Shown here: positions 1,686 through 63,650 of the stretch, piece after piece
Layout of the letters: every line of letters begins with the position of its first letter
How positions within the stretch are numbered: position 1 is the stretch's first letter
Assembly: GCA_963771355.1 (NCBI GenBank)
Contig: CAVYTA010000006.1
Location: 96,001-160,000 of the forward strand
Reading direction: 5' to 3'
Length of the DNA stretch: 64,000 bases
From: an uncultured Candidatus Rokubacteria bacterium
Lineage (GTDB): Bacteria > Methylomirabilota > Methylomirabilia > Rokubacteriales > CSP1-6
Notes under the pieces: generated by a model
The model's database searches: none
What the model was told of the DNA's origin: nothing
What the model saw: only the letters and a program-made list of their open reading frames with translations
Program-made: the position numbers and the translations under genes

Positions 1686-1709
1686 TGTAGGAAAAGCTTT
1701 ACACTTCCG
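1686..1709 (+). promoter_or_regulatory. Enhancer-like TGT-N12-ACA box, distal copy
   Basis: TGTAGGAAAAGCTTTACA, near-copy of 1856-1873; TTTACACTTCCG (1698-1709) recurs at 63540-63551. Confidence 0.6.
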
Positions 1710-1855
1710 TGGTCCTGCATTAAATGTTGCCTTACTGATTAGCACCCTCGAAAGCGCCCTCACACCCTCGCGGCCTTCCTGGCGCCTCCCGTAGCGCAAG
1801 ACCCGAGCGTCTTGGTACTCCCCAAAGATCCTGGCCCCGTGGAGGGGTCTTTGGA

Positions 1856-1873
1856 TGTAGGGAAAACTTTACA
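1856..1873 (+). promoter_or_regulatory. Enhancer-like TGT-N12-ACA box, proximal copy
   Basis: TGTAGGGAAAACTTTACA about 63 bp upstream of a -24/-12 promoter; core GGAAAACTTTAC recurs on the minus strand at 63431-63442. Confidence 0.65.
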
Positions 1874-1934
1874 TTTCGGCTTTCCTCATTTAATGATGTG
1901 TCATAAGTAGCTGAATATATGAACTGTAGCTTGC

Positions 1935-1950
1935 TGGCATGGGTTCTGCT
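1935..1950 (+). promoter_or_regulatory. Sigma-54 (-24/-12) promoter of the PEP-CTERM-type gene
   Basis: TGGCATGGGTTCTGCT = GG-N10-GC, 46 nt before the ATG. Confidence 0.7.
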
Positions 1951-1996
1951 CATGCCTGGTCAAAGGCAGCACAAAAGTGACTGGAATGGAGACAAA

Positions 1997-2845
1997 ATGA
2001 GGCCTATAAGGGCACTGGTGGCGGCAGGCGCATTTGCCGCGGTCCTCGGGATGTCGCCGGTGACGGCGATGGCTCTCCCGTTCCTGGTCGAGGTATCAGT
2101 CGGCTGGCTCAACGAGACTGGCCTCTGCACGGGCGGTGGAAGTGCCTGTCTCGGCTTCAGCGGAACGGGTGGATTCGGAGCGGGTAGCTCGACGATCCTG
2201 AACTGGGACGCCGGGTCCACCGCGCTGGACAGCCGCCTGTCGATCGGCGCGCTTCCCGATGCCTCCGCGACCCCTCCGTTCGATGGATTCCGCGCGGGCA
2301 CGATCGATGTGAATCAGACCGTTCGCACCGCCATGATCCGGCACACCAACAATGCCATTCCCCGGGCGGACGAGACGCTCTCCAGCATCACGCTCCGGAC
2401 GCTGCTGAGGATTCTCTCGCCGGATGGGAATACCGAGATCATCGGGGAGGGTACCGGCGGCGACTTCGACGTCTCCATCTCGTTCCTGGAGACGGCGAAT
2501 ACGGCGCCCTGCAACCAGACCAGCAACTCGATCGGGTCGATCTGCGACGATCAGTTCACGTTCATCAGCCTGAATATCGACATCCCCTTCACGTTCGACG
2601 GGCACAGCTACGTGCTGGAGGCGCGCGGGGTACTCAATCCGGATGGCACCCCGGCCTGCGAGGATGCTGGCAACGGGCAGGTCAATTGCCTGACGCAGGA
2701 GAGAGCGATCAGCGATCGCTTCGTCGCCATCACGCTGCGGCAGGTGGACGTACCCGTGCCGGCTCCGGCGAGTCTGCTGCTCCTGGGCCTGGGCCTGCTG
2801 GGTGCGAGTGTCGGGCCGATGATCCGCAAGCGGCTGGCGCCTTAA
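1997..2845 (+). CDS. PEP-CTERM-type sorting-domain protein (VPAP variant; resembles THxN/choice-of-anchor K-type domain)
   Basis: GGAGA RBS before ATG 1997; signal peptide; C-terminus VPAPASLLLLGLGLLGA..IRKR (motif, TM helix, basic tail); internal RHTNNAI and FLETAN..C..CDD. Confidence 0.8.
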   Translation: MRPIRALVAAGAFAAVLGMSPVTAMALPFLVEVSVGWLNETGLCTGGGSACLGFSGTGGFGAGSSTILNWDAGSTALDSRLSIGALPDASATPPFDGFRAGTIDVNQTVRTAMIRHTNNAIPRADETLSSITLRTLLRILSPDGNTEIIGEGTGGDFDVSISFLETANTAPCNQTSNSIGSICDDQFTFISLNIDIPFTFDGHSYVLEARGVLNPDGTPACEDAGNGQVNCLTQERAISDRFVAITLRQVDVPVPAPASLLLLGLGLLGASVGPMIRKRLAP

Positions 2846-2877: not shown

Positions 2878-2919
2878 CTGGGGGGTAGCCCAATCGGGCT
2901 ACCCCCCAGAACCTTTTTT
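2878..2919 (+). terminator. Intrinsic terminator
   Basis: CTGGGGGGTAGCCC-AATC-GGGCTACCCCCCAG 14-bp stem followed by AACCTTTTTTG. Confidence 0.8.
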
Positions 2920-3210
2920 GGTGCGGCTCCTTGCCCCGCCGCGGCTCCTGAGCCTTCAGGACCTGCGTGCGCTTGCCGGGCGCCGCCACGCCTGAATGTG
3001 CGACGCCCCGTAAGGATGACGCACGCCAAGCCACCGTCGCGGCAAGCGCCGGCCGGCGATCAGTATCAGGTAGCCGACTAGATAGATCCCAAAGGACATT
3101 TGTCCCCTCCTAGACCGCCGACATGGAGCTGGTCGCCCGTTCTCTCTTCTTGCCCCGACGCGATCGATCGAGCATCGTGCGAAGGTGCGGCCGGTCGGGC
3201 AGGCCTAGAT

Positions 3211-3400
3211 TGTCCAGACTCGGGTTGGTGTTGACACTTTCGCCGTCCCAGAGTGAGGCATCAAGTTACTGAAGCCACCACGGCGCCGTGGAAGAGGGAG
3301 GCCGGCGTGCGCCCTCGGACGCGGTAACCGTGATGGGGGCGCTCGAAATTGTAGAACTGCAGGAAACCGCACAGGCTGCGCTCGGCAGCGCGATCTCGAC
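3211..3400 (-). mobile_element. IS481-like remnant: transposase C-terminus and terminal repeat
   Basis: Minus-strand peptide FLQFYNFERPHHGYRVRGRTPA (YNxxRPH..G.TP integrase-core tail) ending at 3261; TGT-starting end TGTCCAGACTCGGGTTGGTGTTGACA at 3211-3236 next to CTAG. Confidence 0.65.
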
Positions 3401-3755
3401 GCCCTCCGCATGGATGAGGCGCAGGAGATCGTGCTGCTGAAGTCCCAGCGAGCCCGAGGTGTTCGTCAGTGCGTATTCGTCGAGGGGACAGCCGAGCAGG
3501 CCGTCGCGCGTCCACTCGAACGCGTTTCCGGGACGCTCGGGAATTGAGAAAAGCGACAGCTCACCCGCTCACCATCGCAATAGAGGTCGTCGGTTGGCCT
3601 GATCGCGCGCTGCCGAGAGAACGCGGCCACGGTTTTGCGCCCGAACCGCCGAACCGAATACGGCGAGCAGTCCGGACATTGTTCAGGCGTCCGGACAGTC
3701 ATGGCCACCATCGTGCTCGAGTCGGTCGAGATGCCGGCGGCGACGCGGCTGGTGC

Positions 3756-4688
3756 TCACCTCGACGGCCGATCGGCGGATCGCGCCCGTTCGGCCCAGCG
3801 GAGCAGATCGGCCCGTGGCCAGACGAGATAGTATGCGATGGGCAGGTATTCGCCCGCTTCGTACAGGCGCCGCCGCGTGTCCGACCTGGCCAGGGCATCG
3901 CGCACCGCCGAGGGATGCGACCCGTATCGGAAGCCCCTGGCCCCGCGCTCCAATCGCCGCGAACGGAGGTAGGCGAGCCGCGGGCTGATCGTCTCGATCC
4001 GGGGATCGTAGAACCAGGCAGTACCGAAGACCCCCTTGACCTCGGGGTTGCGGACCAGCAGCTCTGCTATGCGAAGGTAGCTCCGGTCCCAGCTCTCCGG
4101 ACTGAACTCCGTCAGACGGCGCGGGTCGAGGTGCAGGGAATAGAACGGTCGGAAGCCGCGCGTCCTGACCAGGAAGAAATATACGCCTCGGAGGAACTGG
4201 AGCGCGCCTCCTCGGCAGAGCAGACTCCGTGGCACGCCCGCGCCCACCTCGAGTAGCTCCGCTCCGCACGGGAGCAAGATGAACCGACACAGCCCCAGAT
4301 CTTTCAGGAACAAGTCGTTGGAGAAGTGATAGAAGTCGTCCGGCTGGTGCCCGGTGTCCCGCTGGATCCGCCCGATCTCTTCACGGAGGAGCTCGACGAC
4401 AGATTCCGGTATCGCCTGCCCGGCGACCCTCGTCTCGAACGAAGCGGCCAGGTGCAAGAGGAGAAGCTTGTGGTACTTGCCGAGCGTGGACCGGCCCGCC
4501 CGCCGGGTGATGTCCAGGGAGGCGTCGCGGGTGGTGTTGCTGATCCAGCCGTATCCCCGATACCGGAGCGCTGCCTCGCCGGGCTCGAGATATTGCTCAA
4601 GCGGATGGCGCGTCAAGATCTCTTTGTCGGCGGCGCGCACCTGCGCTCGCAGTGCATCTTGGAGGGGGCCGAGGCCAGGCAAGGTCAC
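3756..4688 (-). CDS. Hypothetical protein, possibly acyltransferase/GNAT-like
   Basis: 310-aa ORF of globular composition; LHLDP..W..SY..IAE.L..NP..KG.FG.AWFYDP; GTG start overlaps the upstream stop (GTGA). Confidence 0.65.
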   Translation of the reverse strand: MTLPGLGPLQDALRAQVRAADKEILTRHPLEQYLEPGEAALRYRGYGWISNTTRDASLDITRRAGRSTLGKYHKLLLLHLAASFETRVAGQAIPESVVELLREEIGRIQRDTGHQPDDFYHFSNDLFLKDLGLCRFILLPCGAELLEVGAGVPRSLLCRGGALQFLRGVYFFLVRTRGFRPFYSLHLDPRRLTEFSPESWDRSYLRIAELLVRNPEVKGVFGTAWFYDPRIETISPRLAYLRSRRLERGARGFRYGSHPSAVRDALARSDTRRRLYEAGEYLPIAYYLVWPRADLLRWAERARSADRPSR

Positions 4689-4903
4689 CGGGAATCCCGC
4701 CTCGCCTGCTGCCTTTGACCGCTCGCGCGCGTGTGGGCCTGGATTGCCTTGGAGGCCGTTTTCTCGAACTGCCGCTTGGCGACATTCTCGACGGCTGCAC
4801 TCCCGATCGCCTTGCGCTTGGTGGATCGGCGGGCGGCGGCGGCGGCCGCCGCGGTTTCTTGATTCGCCGAGGTCACACGCGACGACGCCTTTTTGCTCTT
4901 CAT
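4685..4903 (-). CDS. Small basic hypothetical protein (72 aa)
   Basis: GGAGGG RBS before ATG 4903; MKSKKASS...QARRDSR; coupled to the downstream gene. Confidence 0.6.
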   Translation of the reverse strand: MKSKKASSRVTSANQETAAAAAAARRSTKRKAIGSAAVENVAKRQFEKTASKAIQAHTRASGQRQQARRDSR

Positions 4904-4927
4904 TGGCGCTCCCTCCATTCGGGATGA

Positions 4928-6313
4928 CTATAGCCGAAGCGGAGGATCTTCAGCACCGATGTCGTGGTGGTCGTGGGCGGCAATCTTGAAGAAACGCTCG
5001 GCGTGGCTCGGGTGGACGGAGAGCTGGGTCGCGAGATCGCTCGCGGTGGCGCCGTTCCGGATCGCCAACGTCGCCATCTGGATGAGCTCGGCGCCCGCAT
5101 AGCTGATCATCTGGGCCCCCAGCAGCCGTTCCTGGGCGGCGTCGAACACCAGCTTGAGATACCCGTCGTCTTCCCCGGTGGCGCGGCCGTTCGAGGCCCC
5201 CCGTAGATCCTGGGTCGCGACGTGGCACTTCACGCCGCTGGCCGTTGCCGCCCGGTGGGTCAGGCCGACCCTGGCCACTTCCGGGGTGGTGAAGACGCTC
5301 TGAGGCACGAGCGTGGTGTCGGCGATCAGCTGGTCGCCCAGCAGCGCGTTGTGCGCCGCGAGACGGCCCTCGTACGCGGCCACCGGCGTGAGCTGCGCGT
5401 TGCCGGCGGCATCCCCGGCCGCGTAGATGTGGGCCACCGAGGTGCGGAGATAGGGCGTGACCGCGAGGCCCAGGCGCCCCCTCTCCAGCCCCAGGTGCTG
5501 AGCGCCCAGTGTTTCGGGCCGCCACCGGCGCCCGATGGCCACGCACGCCTGGTCCGCCGCCACCGCGTGAGGCTCGCCGTCTCTCGTGAACCGCGCGGTC
5601 ACGTCGCCTCGTCTTCCCGAGAAGCTCGTGAGCGTGGCGCCGAGGTGAAAGGTGACGCCGCGGCTCTCGAAGATCCTCCTGAGGTATCCGGCCACGTCGG
5701 GGTCGAACCCGGGGAGGATCTCGCCCTCCTGGCCGACGACCACGACCTCGGCTCCGAAGTCGCTGAACGCGCCCGCCATCTCCAGACCGATGACACCCGT
5801 CCCGACGATGACGAGACGTTGCGGGAAGACGGGCAGGAACAGGAGCTCGTCCGAGGTGATCGCCGCTTCGATGCCTGGCACCGCCGGAGCGACGGGGATG
5901 GATCCCGCGGCGATGATGATCCGGTCGCTCCGCAGGGTCGCGTCGTTCACCACGATGGTGTGCGGATCGGCGAACCTCGCTTCGCCGAGGATGATCTCGG
6001 CTCCCGGCCGCGCGAGCGCCGCCGGCAGCGGCTGGAACTCCTTGACGATGTCGTGCTGCCGGCGGATGACCGTCGGCCAGTCCAGGGCGATGGGGCCCGC
6101 CGTCGTGCCGAAGCGTGCTGCATCCTTCGTGATCCGGTGAATCCGCCCAGACCTTACCAAGGCCTTTTTCGGGATTCACCCCCAGTTGACGCACGTTCCG
6201 CCGAGCGGTCCCCGATCGACGAGAGCGACCCGCGCTGCGAGTGTAGCGGCCGCTTTCAATGCATTGATGCCCGCGGCCCCGCCTCCGATGATGACCAGGT
6301 CATAGCGATCCAA
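4928..6313 (-). CDS. Class-I pyridine nucleotide-disulfide oxidoreductase (LpdA/MerA/Gor-like) with in-frame UGA at codon 46; probable selenoprotein
   Basis: TTG start after GGAGG; MDRYDLVIIGGGAAG...GPLGGTCVNWG-TGA-IPKKAL continues in frame into ORF 4928..6160; GTGVIG NAD site, IYAAGD, HPSHAE; no C-terminal Cys-Cys. Confidence 0.85.
6141..6175 (-). promoter_or_regulatory. Putative bacterial SECIS element
   Basis: Immediately 3' of the UGA: AGGCCUU-GGU-AAGGUCU hairpin with apical loop at +18 to +20; lower AUCC/GGAU pairing possible. Confidence 0.65.
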
Positions 6314-61584: not shown

Positions 61585-62460
61585 TCGCGGTCACCCGGCT
61601 CGCCGCGGGCTTCGCGGCCCGGGTGGAGGGCGCCGATCTCACGCGCCCGCCTGGACGAGGCGACGTGGGGGGAGATCCGCGCTGCCTTCGAGGAGCACTC
61701 CGTGCTGGTCTTCCACGACCAGCCCCTGGACGACGAGTCGCAGATCGCCTTCAGCCGCCGCTTCGGCCCCCTCGAGGTGAGCGGGAGCGTCAATCCGGCG
61801 GCGGGCACTCATTTCGCGCGCCAGTCGAACCTGGACGTGAAGACCGGCGACCCGATCCCGGCGGAGGACCGCCGGATGGTCTATCAGCGCGCCAACATGC
61901 TGTGGCACACCGACTCCTCCTTCAAGACGGTGCCCTCACTGTGCTCGCTCCTCTCCGGGCGGATCGTGCCGCCCGAGGGCGGTGACACGGAGTTCGCGAG
62001 CACGCGCTGCGCCTACCCGAGCCTGCCGGAGGACCTGCGGCGGAAGGTCGAGGGGGCGGTCGCGGTGCACAGCTTCGCCTGGTCGCGCGATCAGGTGCAG
62101 CCCGGCTTTTTCACCGACACGGAGCGCGCGGAGTACCCGCCCGTCCGCCATCCGATGGTGCGCGTCAATCCCGTCAACGGGCGGAAGGCCCTCTTCCTGG
62201 GCGCGCATGCCTCCCACATCGAGGGGATGCCGCTGGAGGAGGGCCGCGCGCTCCTCGCGGCCATCCTGGAGCACGTGACGCAGCCCGAGTTCCGCTACCG
62301 TCACCGGTGGCGGGAAGGGGATCTCGTGATCTGGGACAATCGCTGCGTGCTCCACCGCGCGACGCCCTTCGACGCCGGCCGGCACCGGCGCCTCATGCAG
62401 CGGACCACGGTGGCCGGGGACGCCACCGAGGCGCGCCCCCTAGGTCAGATGCAAAGCTGA
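61581..62460 (+). CDS. TauD/TfdA family 2OG-Fe(II) dioxygenase, frameshifted near 61650
   Basis: MIAVTRL..GFAARVEGADLTRP / LDEATWGEIRAAFEEHSVLVF across a +1 shift; WHTDSSF, GGDTEFAS, WDNRCVLHRA. Confidence 0.9.
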
Positions 62461-63322
62461 CTAGCCGCGAGACTCCGGCGCGCAACACTCGGGAGAGCGC
62501 GGCCAGTGCGAAGAAACCCAAGCCCAGCAACTGAAAGGACCACGGCTGCGGGATCTGGGCGATGACCAGTTGCGGCTCGCCGTAGAAGAAGTCGTCCATC
62601 ACCACCAGGTCGATGGTCGGGGTCTCGTTGGGCCCCAGCGCCGCGGTGCCGGTGACGATCCGAATGGAGCCGATGAGCGGATCACCGGGATCAGTGGTGA
62701 TCCCGAAGAACGAGAACGTCTGGTCGCCCTGGAAGGCCGGCACGTCGAAAACGCCCAGGGAATTACCGTTGGTGTCGAAATATTCGATGGTCGTCGCGCC
62801 CGACACGTCCACGTCCGAGAAGACCGCCCCGAAGCCCCGCACCCCTGCCGCCACGGCACCGCCCGAGCCCGGGATCGAGAAGGACCCGTCTGTGACGTTG
62901 CTGCCCACGGGGGCGAACAGTCGGTTCGCGCTGAAGGGCGCGAAGAGATTGGCGTACGTCGCGTTGATCAGGTCGAGGCTCAGCAAGCCGCCCGTGACCG
63001 GAGCCTGGGTCAGCCCGGTGCCCGGCGTGGTGAAGGTGCCGCCCCGCGTGTTCTGAAAGACGATGAAGGGCGTTGCCGGAGCGGTGCCGTCGGTCGCGCC
63101 CCCGCCATCCCAGTTGATCTCGCGGCGGCCAGCCCCCAACGGGCCGGCGTCATTGGCGTTGTTAGGATCCCCGAGGGCCGCTCGATATGCGTCCACAGTG
63201 GCCTGGATCGCGAGCGCGTTCGCACCCGCGCCGCTGAACATACTGACCGCGCCAGCGTCGATCGGCGCCGCCAGGAGCGTTCCTGCCAGCGCCACCACGA
63301 TTGACCGCATTGTCACTGTCAT
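62393..63322 (-). CDS. PEP-CTERM-type sorting-domain protein (IPQP variant)
   Basis: GGGGAG RBS; signal peptide; RREINWDG..FGAVFSDVD..VMDDF.Y.EP domain; IPQPWSFQLLGLGFFALAALSR.LR tail; 3' end overlaps TauD. Confidence 0.78.
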   Translation of the reverse strand: MTVTMRSIVVALAGTLLAAPIDAGAVSMFSGAGANALAIQATVDAYRAALGDPNNANDAGPLGAGRREINWDGGGATDGTAPATPFIVFQNTRGGTFTTPGTGLTQAPVTGGLLSLDLINATYANLFAPFSANRLFAPVGSNVTDGSFSIPGSGGAVAAGVRGFGAVFSDVDVSGATTIEYFDTNGNSLGVFDVPAFQGDQTFSFFGITTDPGDPLIGSIRIVTGTAALGPNETPTIDLVVMDDFFYGEPQLVIAQIPQPWSFQLLGLGFFALAALSRVLRAGVSRLVSFASDLGGAPRWRPRPPWSAA

Positions 63323-63349: not shown

Positions 63350-63365
63350 TGCATGGGAAGTGCCG
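63350..63365 (-). promoter_or_regulatory. Sigma-54 promoter of the second PEP-CTERM-type gene
   Basis: CGGCACTTCCCATGCA = GG-N10-GC. Confidence 0.65.
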
Positions 63366-63446: not shown

Positions 63447-63650
63447 ATGCGTCAGAGGATAATCTGCATAAGATAGCGTAATAGCTCATGTTCAGCGCTG
63501 TAGCCTGATGGTAATAAAACGTCCACTTTCTGGTAAAAGTTTACACTTCCGCGGGTAGATCGCTGGGCGATCGCAGGCCAATTCAGCAGGGGGCGGCTCG
63601 ACCGCGGTCCGGTTGGCCCGCGCGCGGCGGGAGGCTATACTGAGCCCGAC

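Follow-up and report, generated by a model that had tools for sequence, protein, structure and literature searches.

Near the two ends of the window analysed here, the whole 64,000-nucleotide stretch at C6:96001-160000 of a genome (G000) of 5,525,756 bases and 70% G+C, lie two genes for secreted proteins with C-terminal sorting tails, and the regions upstream of both contain the same short words. The question raised by this locus is whether those words belong to a common switch and, if so, to which one. In the reading favoured here, both genes stand behind a box and a sigma-54 promoter placed 62-65 nt apart, and they are very probably switched on together by the sensor and regulator pair PrsK/PrsR.

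The sequence-only reading of the window had reported two exact 12-mers and two GG-N10-GC promoters, and on re-checking the positions of all of them were correct. The first 12-mer, GGAAAACTTTAC, occurs as an exact match at 1861-1872 (+) before gene 1 and at 63442-63431 (-) before gene 2, at the reported 64 and 67 nt from the first G of the promoter. The second, TTTACACTTCCG, is found at 1698-1709 (+) and 63540-63551 (+), the latter copy being inverted relative to gene 2. The upstream regions are AT-rich, as had been claimed, with 48.5% A+T for gene 1 and 43.9% for gene 2 versus 31% for the window. Across the 5,525,756 bases of the genome each word occurs exactly twice, always at these window sites; the whole-genome chance expectation under an order-5 Markov model is 0.008 for GGAAAACTTTAC and 0.014 for TTTACACTTCCG. 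An origin of the common words by chance in AT-rich DNA, or as the remnant of a recent promoter duplication, would be favoured by dinucleotide-type resampling of the two upstream regions, where at least one common 12-mer appeared in about 1% of resamplings (49/5000) and at least two in 10/5000, and by the CTTCCG extension of TTTACACTTCCG, six bases absent from the other boxes of the genome. Nevertheless, the protein families differ between the two genes, the spacers are unlike, and the motif is found again at a constant distance across the phylum as well as in Vibrio, which makes this explanation extremely improbable.

The proposal of two shared boxes holds in part. The 12-mers are real, but the second does not represent a separate kind of box: TTTACACTTCCG is the TTTACA end of distal copies of the box plus six flanking bases, and a pair of different motifs is thereby ruled out. 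On sequence grounds, GGAAAACTTTAC and TTTACACTTCCG are pieces of one repeated motif, the PEP-CTERM box, 17-18 nt long and ending TTTACA or TTTACG. The features of the window are as follows.

1686..1703, plus strand: distal PEP-CTERM box of gene 1, TGTAGGAAAAGCTTTACA, 18-nt form, 16.6 bits in the relatives-trained model, 232 nt upstream of the GG and containing the first half of TTTACACTTCCG
1856..1873, plus strand: proximal PEP-CTERM box of gene 1, TGTAGGGAAAACTTTACA, 18-nt form, 16.6 bits, 62 nt upstream of the GG; predicted PrsR site
1904..1916, minus strand: IHF-like site between the box and the promoter of gene 1, matching 7/9 of the IHF consensus
1935..1950, plus strand: sigma-54 -24/-12 promoter of gene 1, TGGCATGGGTTCTGCT, GG-N10-GC, 17.3 bits
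1997..2845, plus strand: gene 1, THxN-family PEP-CTERM protein of 282 aa (NF038125, 106 bits, cut-off 85)
2878..2917, plus strand: intrinsic-terminator-like hairpin, 14 pairs followed by a T run, closing the single-gene unit
62393..63322, minus strand: gene 2, secreted protein of a large unnamed family, 309 aa by translation
63350..63365, minus strand: sigma-54 -24/-12 promoter of gene 2, CGGCACTTCCCATGCA, GG-N10-GC, 10.4 bits
63430..63446, minus strand: proximal PEP-CTERM box of gene 2, TGTCGGAAAACTTTACG, 17-nt form ending TTTACG, 17.5 bits, 65 nt upstream of the GG; predicted PrsR site
63529..63545, plus strand: distal box copy of gene 2, inverted and degenerate, with only the TTTACA half intact (below 8 bits) and containing the first half of TTTACACTTCCG

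The transcription start of gene 1 is predicted near 1961. Just before its distal box ends the 3' part of a gene on the same strand for a transporter of the AcrB/AcrD/AcrF family (3-1664), which as far as tested is unrelated to the regulon.

A motif of this kind was described by Haft, Paulsen, Ward and Selengut in 2006 as a 17-nt sequence ending TTTACA, sometimes repeated, lying 62.8 +/- 10.6 nt upstream of a sigma-54 motif and, in that account of the box, seen only in its 13 Proteobacteria (PMC1569441). The identity of the present box is set by this description, that is by length, ending and spacing, and not by the published logo. A model of the box was trained on relatives. From 32 genomes (31 with a PrsR match, plus G125), 72 of 132 PEP-CTERM matches were fetched, and for 56 of them both the start and the upstream region were usable. 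A sigma-54 site preceded 43 of these 56 genes, compared with 19% in resamplings and 6/56 on the other strand, and in 17 of the 43 promoters a box ended 61-65 nt from the GG. The 32 training sites (27 with 17 nt and 5 with 18 nt) include none from this genome; the pattern used to choose their seeds came from the window, and the model is therefore not de novo.

Applied to the genome, the model yields 13 composites of box and promoter above the reversed-genome maximum (24.5), five of which precede PEP-CTERM genes, including both window genes (gene 1 ranks second and gene 2 eleventh). A sigma-54 site of at least 9 bits is found before all ten PEP-CTERM genes of the genome, with a background of 82/1559 proxy starts. 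The enrichment of the motif before other PEP-CTERM genes, on which the first reading had staked its claim, is borne out by a box of at least 8 bits at 32-92 nt before 6/10 of them versus 2/1559 proxy starts; among the remaining PEP-CTERM genes, 2/10 have only a distal box and 2/10 no box of 8 bits. We predict that this switch governs at least 8 of the 10 PEP-CTERM genes, together with several further envelope genes.

These counts also bear on the possibility that TTTACA is the -35 element of sigma-70 promoters from which the genes are read, GG-N10-GC being incidental. A scan with the sigma-70 consensus does find TTTACA-18-AATGAT at 1868-1897 (one found, 0.2 expected), but this matches at only 9/12 positions, whereas sigma-54 sites stand before 10/10 PEP-CTERM genes against a 5% background, the spacing to the GG is fixed across genera, and pepA of Aquincola tertiaricarbonis has been reported as RpoN-dependent with a -24/-12 start (PMC9850573). 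Reading from sigma-70 promoters is accordingly highly improbable, and we return to sigma-54 promoters preceded by a PEP-CTERM box.

Beyond the phylum, 82.7 kb of prsKR regions from an Alteromonas and a Vibrio plasmid contained a single composite match, which is the promoter of a Vibrio alfacsensis PEP-CTERM gene; the site selected there by the relatives-trained model is TGTCGATATATTTTACA. As a negative control, 30 of 70 matches were taken from 38 genomes without a PrsR match; this is a small set of related genomes, and 18 of the matches were usable. They gave eight sigma-54 PEP-CTERM promoters, one of which (1/8) had a proximal box, and its genome carries PrsK over the cut-off (five control genomes were checked for PrsK). 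In another control genome, G085, a box of 15.4 bits lies at 96 nt from a weak promoter. The corresponding figure for PrsR-positive genomes, 24/44, is circular, as the positive set is the training set. The exact 18-nt pattern GGNAAANNTTTACA has five matches here, and elsewhere among 151 phylum genomes it is scattered at about the reversed-control level; in 18 relatives' loci fetched with it, the tail pattern used detected no PEP-CTERM tail. The conserved form of the box is the looser 17-nt one.

A probable regulator for such boxes is encoded on C6, where prsK, an exosortase gene, epsI and prsR (C6:715090-716418) follow one another in one direction, with prsK and prsR 1.6 kb apart. Profile searches, which had been suggested as a check, found these components over their cut-offs: PrsK (TIGR02916, 421.5 bits, cut-off 300), PrsR (TIGR02915, 595.5 bits, cut-off 502.6, with the next-best activator at 442), EpsI between prsK and prsR (88.9 bits, cut-off 42.8), RpoN (442.7 bits, cut-off 277) and the exosortase treated below. 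A PEP-CTERM-associated acyltransferase lies near the prsR cluster (TIGR03694, 179.5, cut-off 112), and PrsT (TIGR02917) reaches 335.2, with a cut-off of 312.2, only when summed over three same-frame pieces on C2, other TPR genes scoring lower. Two PEP-CTERM genes of the genome (C6:710628-711615 and C5:148400-149417) and several prsR neighbours are split by frameshifts, which may be either indels of the assembly or genuine decay.

The lineage had been called apparently non-proteobacterial, and the nearest named relatives of RpoN and PrsR agree. Among the best 120 RpoN relatives, 7 of 9 organism-labelled rows are Methylomirabilota or Rokubacteria (best 86% identity), the other two being Eisenbacteria and Deferrimicrobiaceae; among the best 120 for PrsR, 4 of 5 named rows are Rokubacteria and one is Acidobacteriota, and three of the Rokubacterial rows are already labelled 'PEP-CTERM-box response regulator' by NCBI. 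PrsR exceeds the cut-off in at least 32 of 151 phylum genomes, a count obtained with 10 candidates scored per genome, by which G114 was missed. In a quick tree the PrsR of this genome groups with three same-genus PrsR (support 91-100); this tree is uninformative on origin or direction of transfer because it holds only two, long proteobacterial rows.

An exosortase-substrate regulon in this lineage, as earlier proposed, is thus upheld; what does not stand is its description as an equivalent only, since PrsK and PrsR are orthologous and the box is the same. The evidence supports identification with the known PrsK/PrsR regulon itself, because PrsK, PrsR, exosortase, EpsI and RpoN exceed their cut-offs and the relatives' model fits both the PEP-CTERM genes and the Vibrio promoter. 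The recognition helix of PrsR points the same way in reading SRPTL here, TRPTL in Vibrio and SRPTF in Alteromonas; of the 22 other activators aligned, one has RPT and the remaining 21 are unlike the PrsR helix. The 18-nt form of the box (TGTA-N10-TACA, gene 1) might instead be read by a sigma-54 activator different from that of the 17-nt form (gene 2). No single register aligns these forms, 23 activators with a GAFTGA-type motif are available in the genome, and at two genes the only strong site is a distal 18-nt box. On the other side, both forms end 61-65 nt from the GG and have a common right half and an A-rich core, the forms interchange before relatives' PEP-CTERM genes, and the window boxes have 12 exact bases in common. 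Two activators are distinctly unlikely on this balance, and a single PrsR for both forms is preferred.

Activation of sigma-54 promoters by distant AAA+ activators is an established mechanism, and together with the RpoN dependence of Aquincola pepA it is the basis for the steps proposed here. PrsK would phosphorylate PrsR on some signal, and PrsR dimers would occupy the proximal box as well as another copy lying 160-230 nt upstream. Bending of the DNA, probably aided by an IHF-type protein positioned about -32 from the GG, would bring the AAA+ ring to the sigma-54 polymerase; PrsR would then open the promoter and give rise to single-gene transcripts. Export of the products would rely on their N-terminal signal, and the C-terminal helix would hold them until the exosortase cuts near P-x-P and they are moved to the polysaccharide layer.

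The bending step is suggested by matches to the generally known nine-position IHF consensus. At -35 to -29 from the GG, at least 6/9 positions match in 22 of 55 promoters, with a peak at -32/-31, compared with 2-9 in eight other same-strand windows and 1-15 on the other strand. Gene 1 has a 7/9 match, the site at 1904..1916 (-), which can be regarded as a putative DNA-bending site; gene 2 is without one (4/9). There are five HU/IHF-family matches in the genome, none of them over the cut-off of the IHF-alpha model (best 94.5 of 120).

As for the products, the protein of gene 1 has a signal-peptide-like N terminus, an NF038125 match spanning residues 6-270, and a tail formed by VPVPAPA, a hydrophobic helix and RKR. 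It thus resembles the THxN family in its 106-bit match and differs in ending VPVPAPA, not VPEP; with PAP in place of Pro-Glu-Pro, the tail scores 14.6 bits against TIGR02595, below the cut-off of 16. A search for relatives of gene 1 in a named genome collection gave one irrelevant match among 96 candidates, and its promoter has no alignable orthologue in the genus, as the nucleotide search there yielded only short matches. Part of 1600-2900 is contained in 24 sequencing runs from soil and rhizosphere, 19 of which are recorded as RNA. In four of these runs that were examined, contigs at 90-100% identity span 1995-2871 and none lies on 1601-1920; the runs had been selected through gene 1, and start sites cannot be read from contigs. 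What the contigs show is that RNA libraries contain close relatives of gene 1; they give neither strand, start nor level.

The tail of gene 2 consists of IPQP, a hydrophobic helix and basic residues. The protein has no NCBIfam match, TIGR02595 included, and one Pfam match below cut-off, yet 3259 homologs were found among the 7996 candidates scored. In the best 120 of them the tail motif is VPQP in 48, VPEP in 14, IPQP in 10, TPQP in 8 and others in the rest, with a hydrophobic helix and then basic residues after it, and the gene 2 product is likely an exosortase substrate. At its C-terminal end (62393-62460) gene 2 extends 16 residues beyond the 94%-identical homolog P0123 and about 20 beyond most of the family; a local frameshift may account for this extension, which lies past the basic cluster. 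With helix and basic cluster present, and VPEP among those 120 homologs, we have filed the PAP and PQP tails of the window as variant sorting tails. The VPAP and IPQP motifs had been singled out as non-canonical: they do deviate from Pro-Glu-Pro, but they have no special status here, for PEP occurs in only 6/27 tails of same-genus genomes, where P-x-P is the rule. Because of this, of the mixed tails of the gene 2 homologs and of the named exosortase subfamilies that already exist for variant tails (the VPLPA and VPDSG models), variant P-x-P tails are by all appearances ordinary in this lineage.

The exosortase linked to prsK (L010:17102-17989, minus) scores 157 bits with TIGR02602 (cut-off 105.55) and has the Cys, Arg and His motifs, as C-S-S, N-I-I-R and H-M-F-N-G. 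C-S-S replaces C-x-G, and no named subfamily cut-off is reached: 166 versus 208 for XrtA (TIGR03109), 202.5 versus 425 for XrtW and 149 versus 400 for XrtD. The enzyme may represent a subfamily of its own in Rokubacteria, suited to P-x-P tails. More exosortase copies are found on C2.

Not all strong boxes stand before PEP-CTERM genes. The eight further top composites precede a subtilase, a lytic transglycosylase, two Gly/Ser-rich peptides, two small unnamed proteins, a promoter with no gene and a non-coding unit. They are listed below together with the PEP-CTERM gene that has the top-scoring box and promoter of the genome.

C5:322998 (minus), C7:499528 (minus), C6:696534 (minus) and C5:1003169 (plus): secreted subtilase, lytic transglycosylase and two near-identical Gly/Ser-rich secreted peptides, box-preceded and with no PEP-CTERM tail
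C5:401519 (L144:1020-1268) and C6:991519: two small proteins behind strong composites, one of 83 aa, Arg-rich (DRRRGERRR) and with no NCBIfam match
C6:1521709-1521924: 71-aa PEP-CTERM protein, nearly only signal peptide and sorting tail, with the top-scoring box and promoter
C6:432525-432620: geneless promoter with an intact 18-nt box, an IHF-like site and a sigma-54 promoter
G000:C5:820305-820403, minus strand: non-coding unit of about 95 nt with two hairpins, behind a box and a sigma-54 promoter, outside the window

The 71-aa mini-gene, with a box at 63-64 nt, is also present in three same-genus genomes. A PEP-CTERM gene has likely been deleted behind the geneless promoter, because in G041 and G096 a PEP-CTERM tail is found at the matching place, directly before DNA that matches this locus.

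The non-coding unit lies between a same-strand gene and a convergent gene. Its box, its sigma-54 site and two hairpins, the first of which has 19 invariant bases, are kept in 8/8 genus genomes, and the 11-nt loop is invariant. The exact 17-mer at this locus is absent from the other 243 phylum genomes listed. A metagenome scan blind to the box retrieved 21 loci, many of them near-duplicates, and all 20 with enough upstream DNA had a box at 61-62 nt. Across 19 distinct sequences, pairing holds in 96.8% of cells, and both sides change in 3 of 23 pairs. The covariation score is reached by 0/500 shuffles, a figure that cannot be taken as a probability when the sequences are related. With no conserved start or reading frame in these 19 sequences, an encoded peptide was rejected. 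More distant homologs were sought as well: outside the genus, scores fall to 27-34 bits versus 84-101 bits, and none of 22 one-mismatch loci checked has a box. The unit is best read as a candidate small RNA gene under PrsR and sigma-54.

The Vibrio Qrr small RNAs are under LuxO/sigma-54 control. The present unit is like them in combining an activator site, a sigma-54 promoter, a short non-coding transcript and a terminal hairpin, and it differs in that no Rfam match, no Hfq in this genome and no target were found. The target search was a duplex scan of 6171 proxy starts, which gave no convincing candidate and ranked six PEP-CTERM starts at 3115-6146; the complement of the 11-nt loop occurs 45 times in the genome. 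One guess is that the invariant loop has a protein-binding role.

Compared with the system of Haft et al. 2006, as its passages on the box and its genes present it, the likeness extends to the box ending, the repeats, the distance of about 63 nt to the sigma-54 site (here 62 and 65), long upstream regions before units of a single gene, PrsK and PrsR close together with the exosortase adjacent, and a few extra sites before other genes. The host differs, being Methylomirabilota/Rokubacteria here and Proteobacteria there, and so do the placing of exosortase and EpsI between prsK and prsR, the 18-nt form, the mostly P-x-P tails and the exosortase below the XrtA cut-off; the IHF-like site and the box-driven hairpin RNA are absent from the box section of that paper (PMC1569441). 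The Aquincola pepA gene and its floc-forming relatives are alike in combining a PEP-CTERM gene, a -24/-12 promoter and an upstream enhancer, as far as the published account goes (PMC9850573). Gene 1, in contrast, belongs to the THxN family and scores 23.8 with the PepA model, whose cut-off is 80, and the lineage here is uncultured.

In the literature searched, mainly at title and abstract level and with few subscription papers, there was no report of a PEP-CTERM box regulon in Rokubacteria or Methylomirabilis, nor of PrsR with a small RNA and PEP-CTERM. The switch itself has been known since 2006 in Proteobacteria; what appears to be new is the lineage, the 18-nt box variant, the likely IHF site and the predicted hairpin RNA, genus-conserved and box-driven. 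We think it rather probable that PrsK/PrsR and a cross-readable site are common to Proteobacteria and Methylomirabilota, and that here they also drive the hairpin RNA, the 71-aa substrate, the subtilase and the lytic transglycosylase. If true, PrsR would be a general envelope and matrix switch with an RNA arm, adding post-transcriptional regulation to PrsK/PrsR control. A regulon described as proteobacterial would extend to an abundant uncultured soil phylum, and the motif model would list likely targets for a regulated matrix of polysaccharide and surface proteins in Rokubacteria.

Among the PEP-CTERM genes of this genome, the one at G000:C6:218314-219426 has an 18-nt distal box identical to that of the gene at C1:148821, and its product, from an FGDSLSD motif noted by eye, resembles an esterase of the GDSL/SGNH family.
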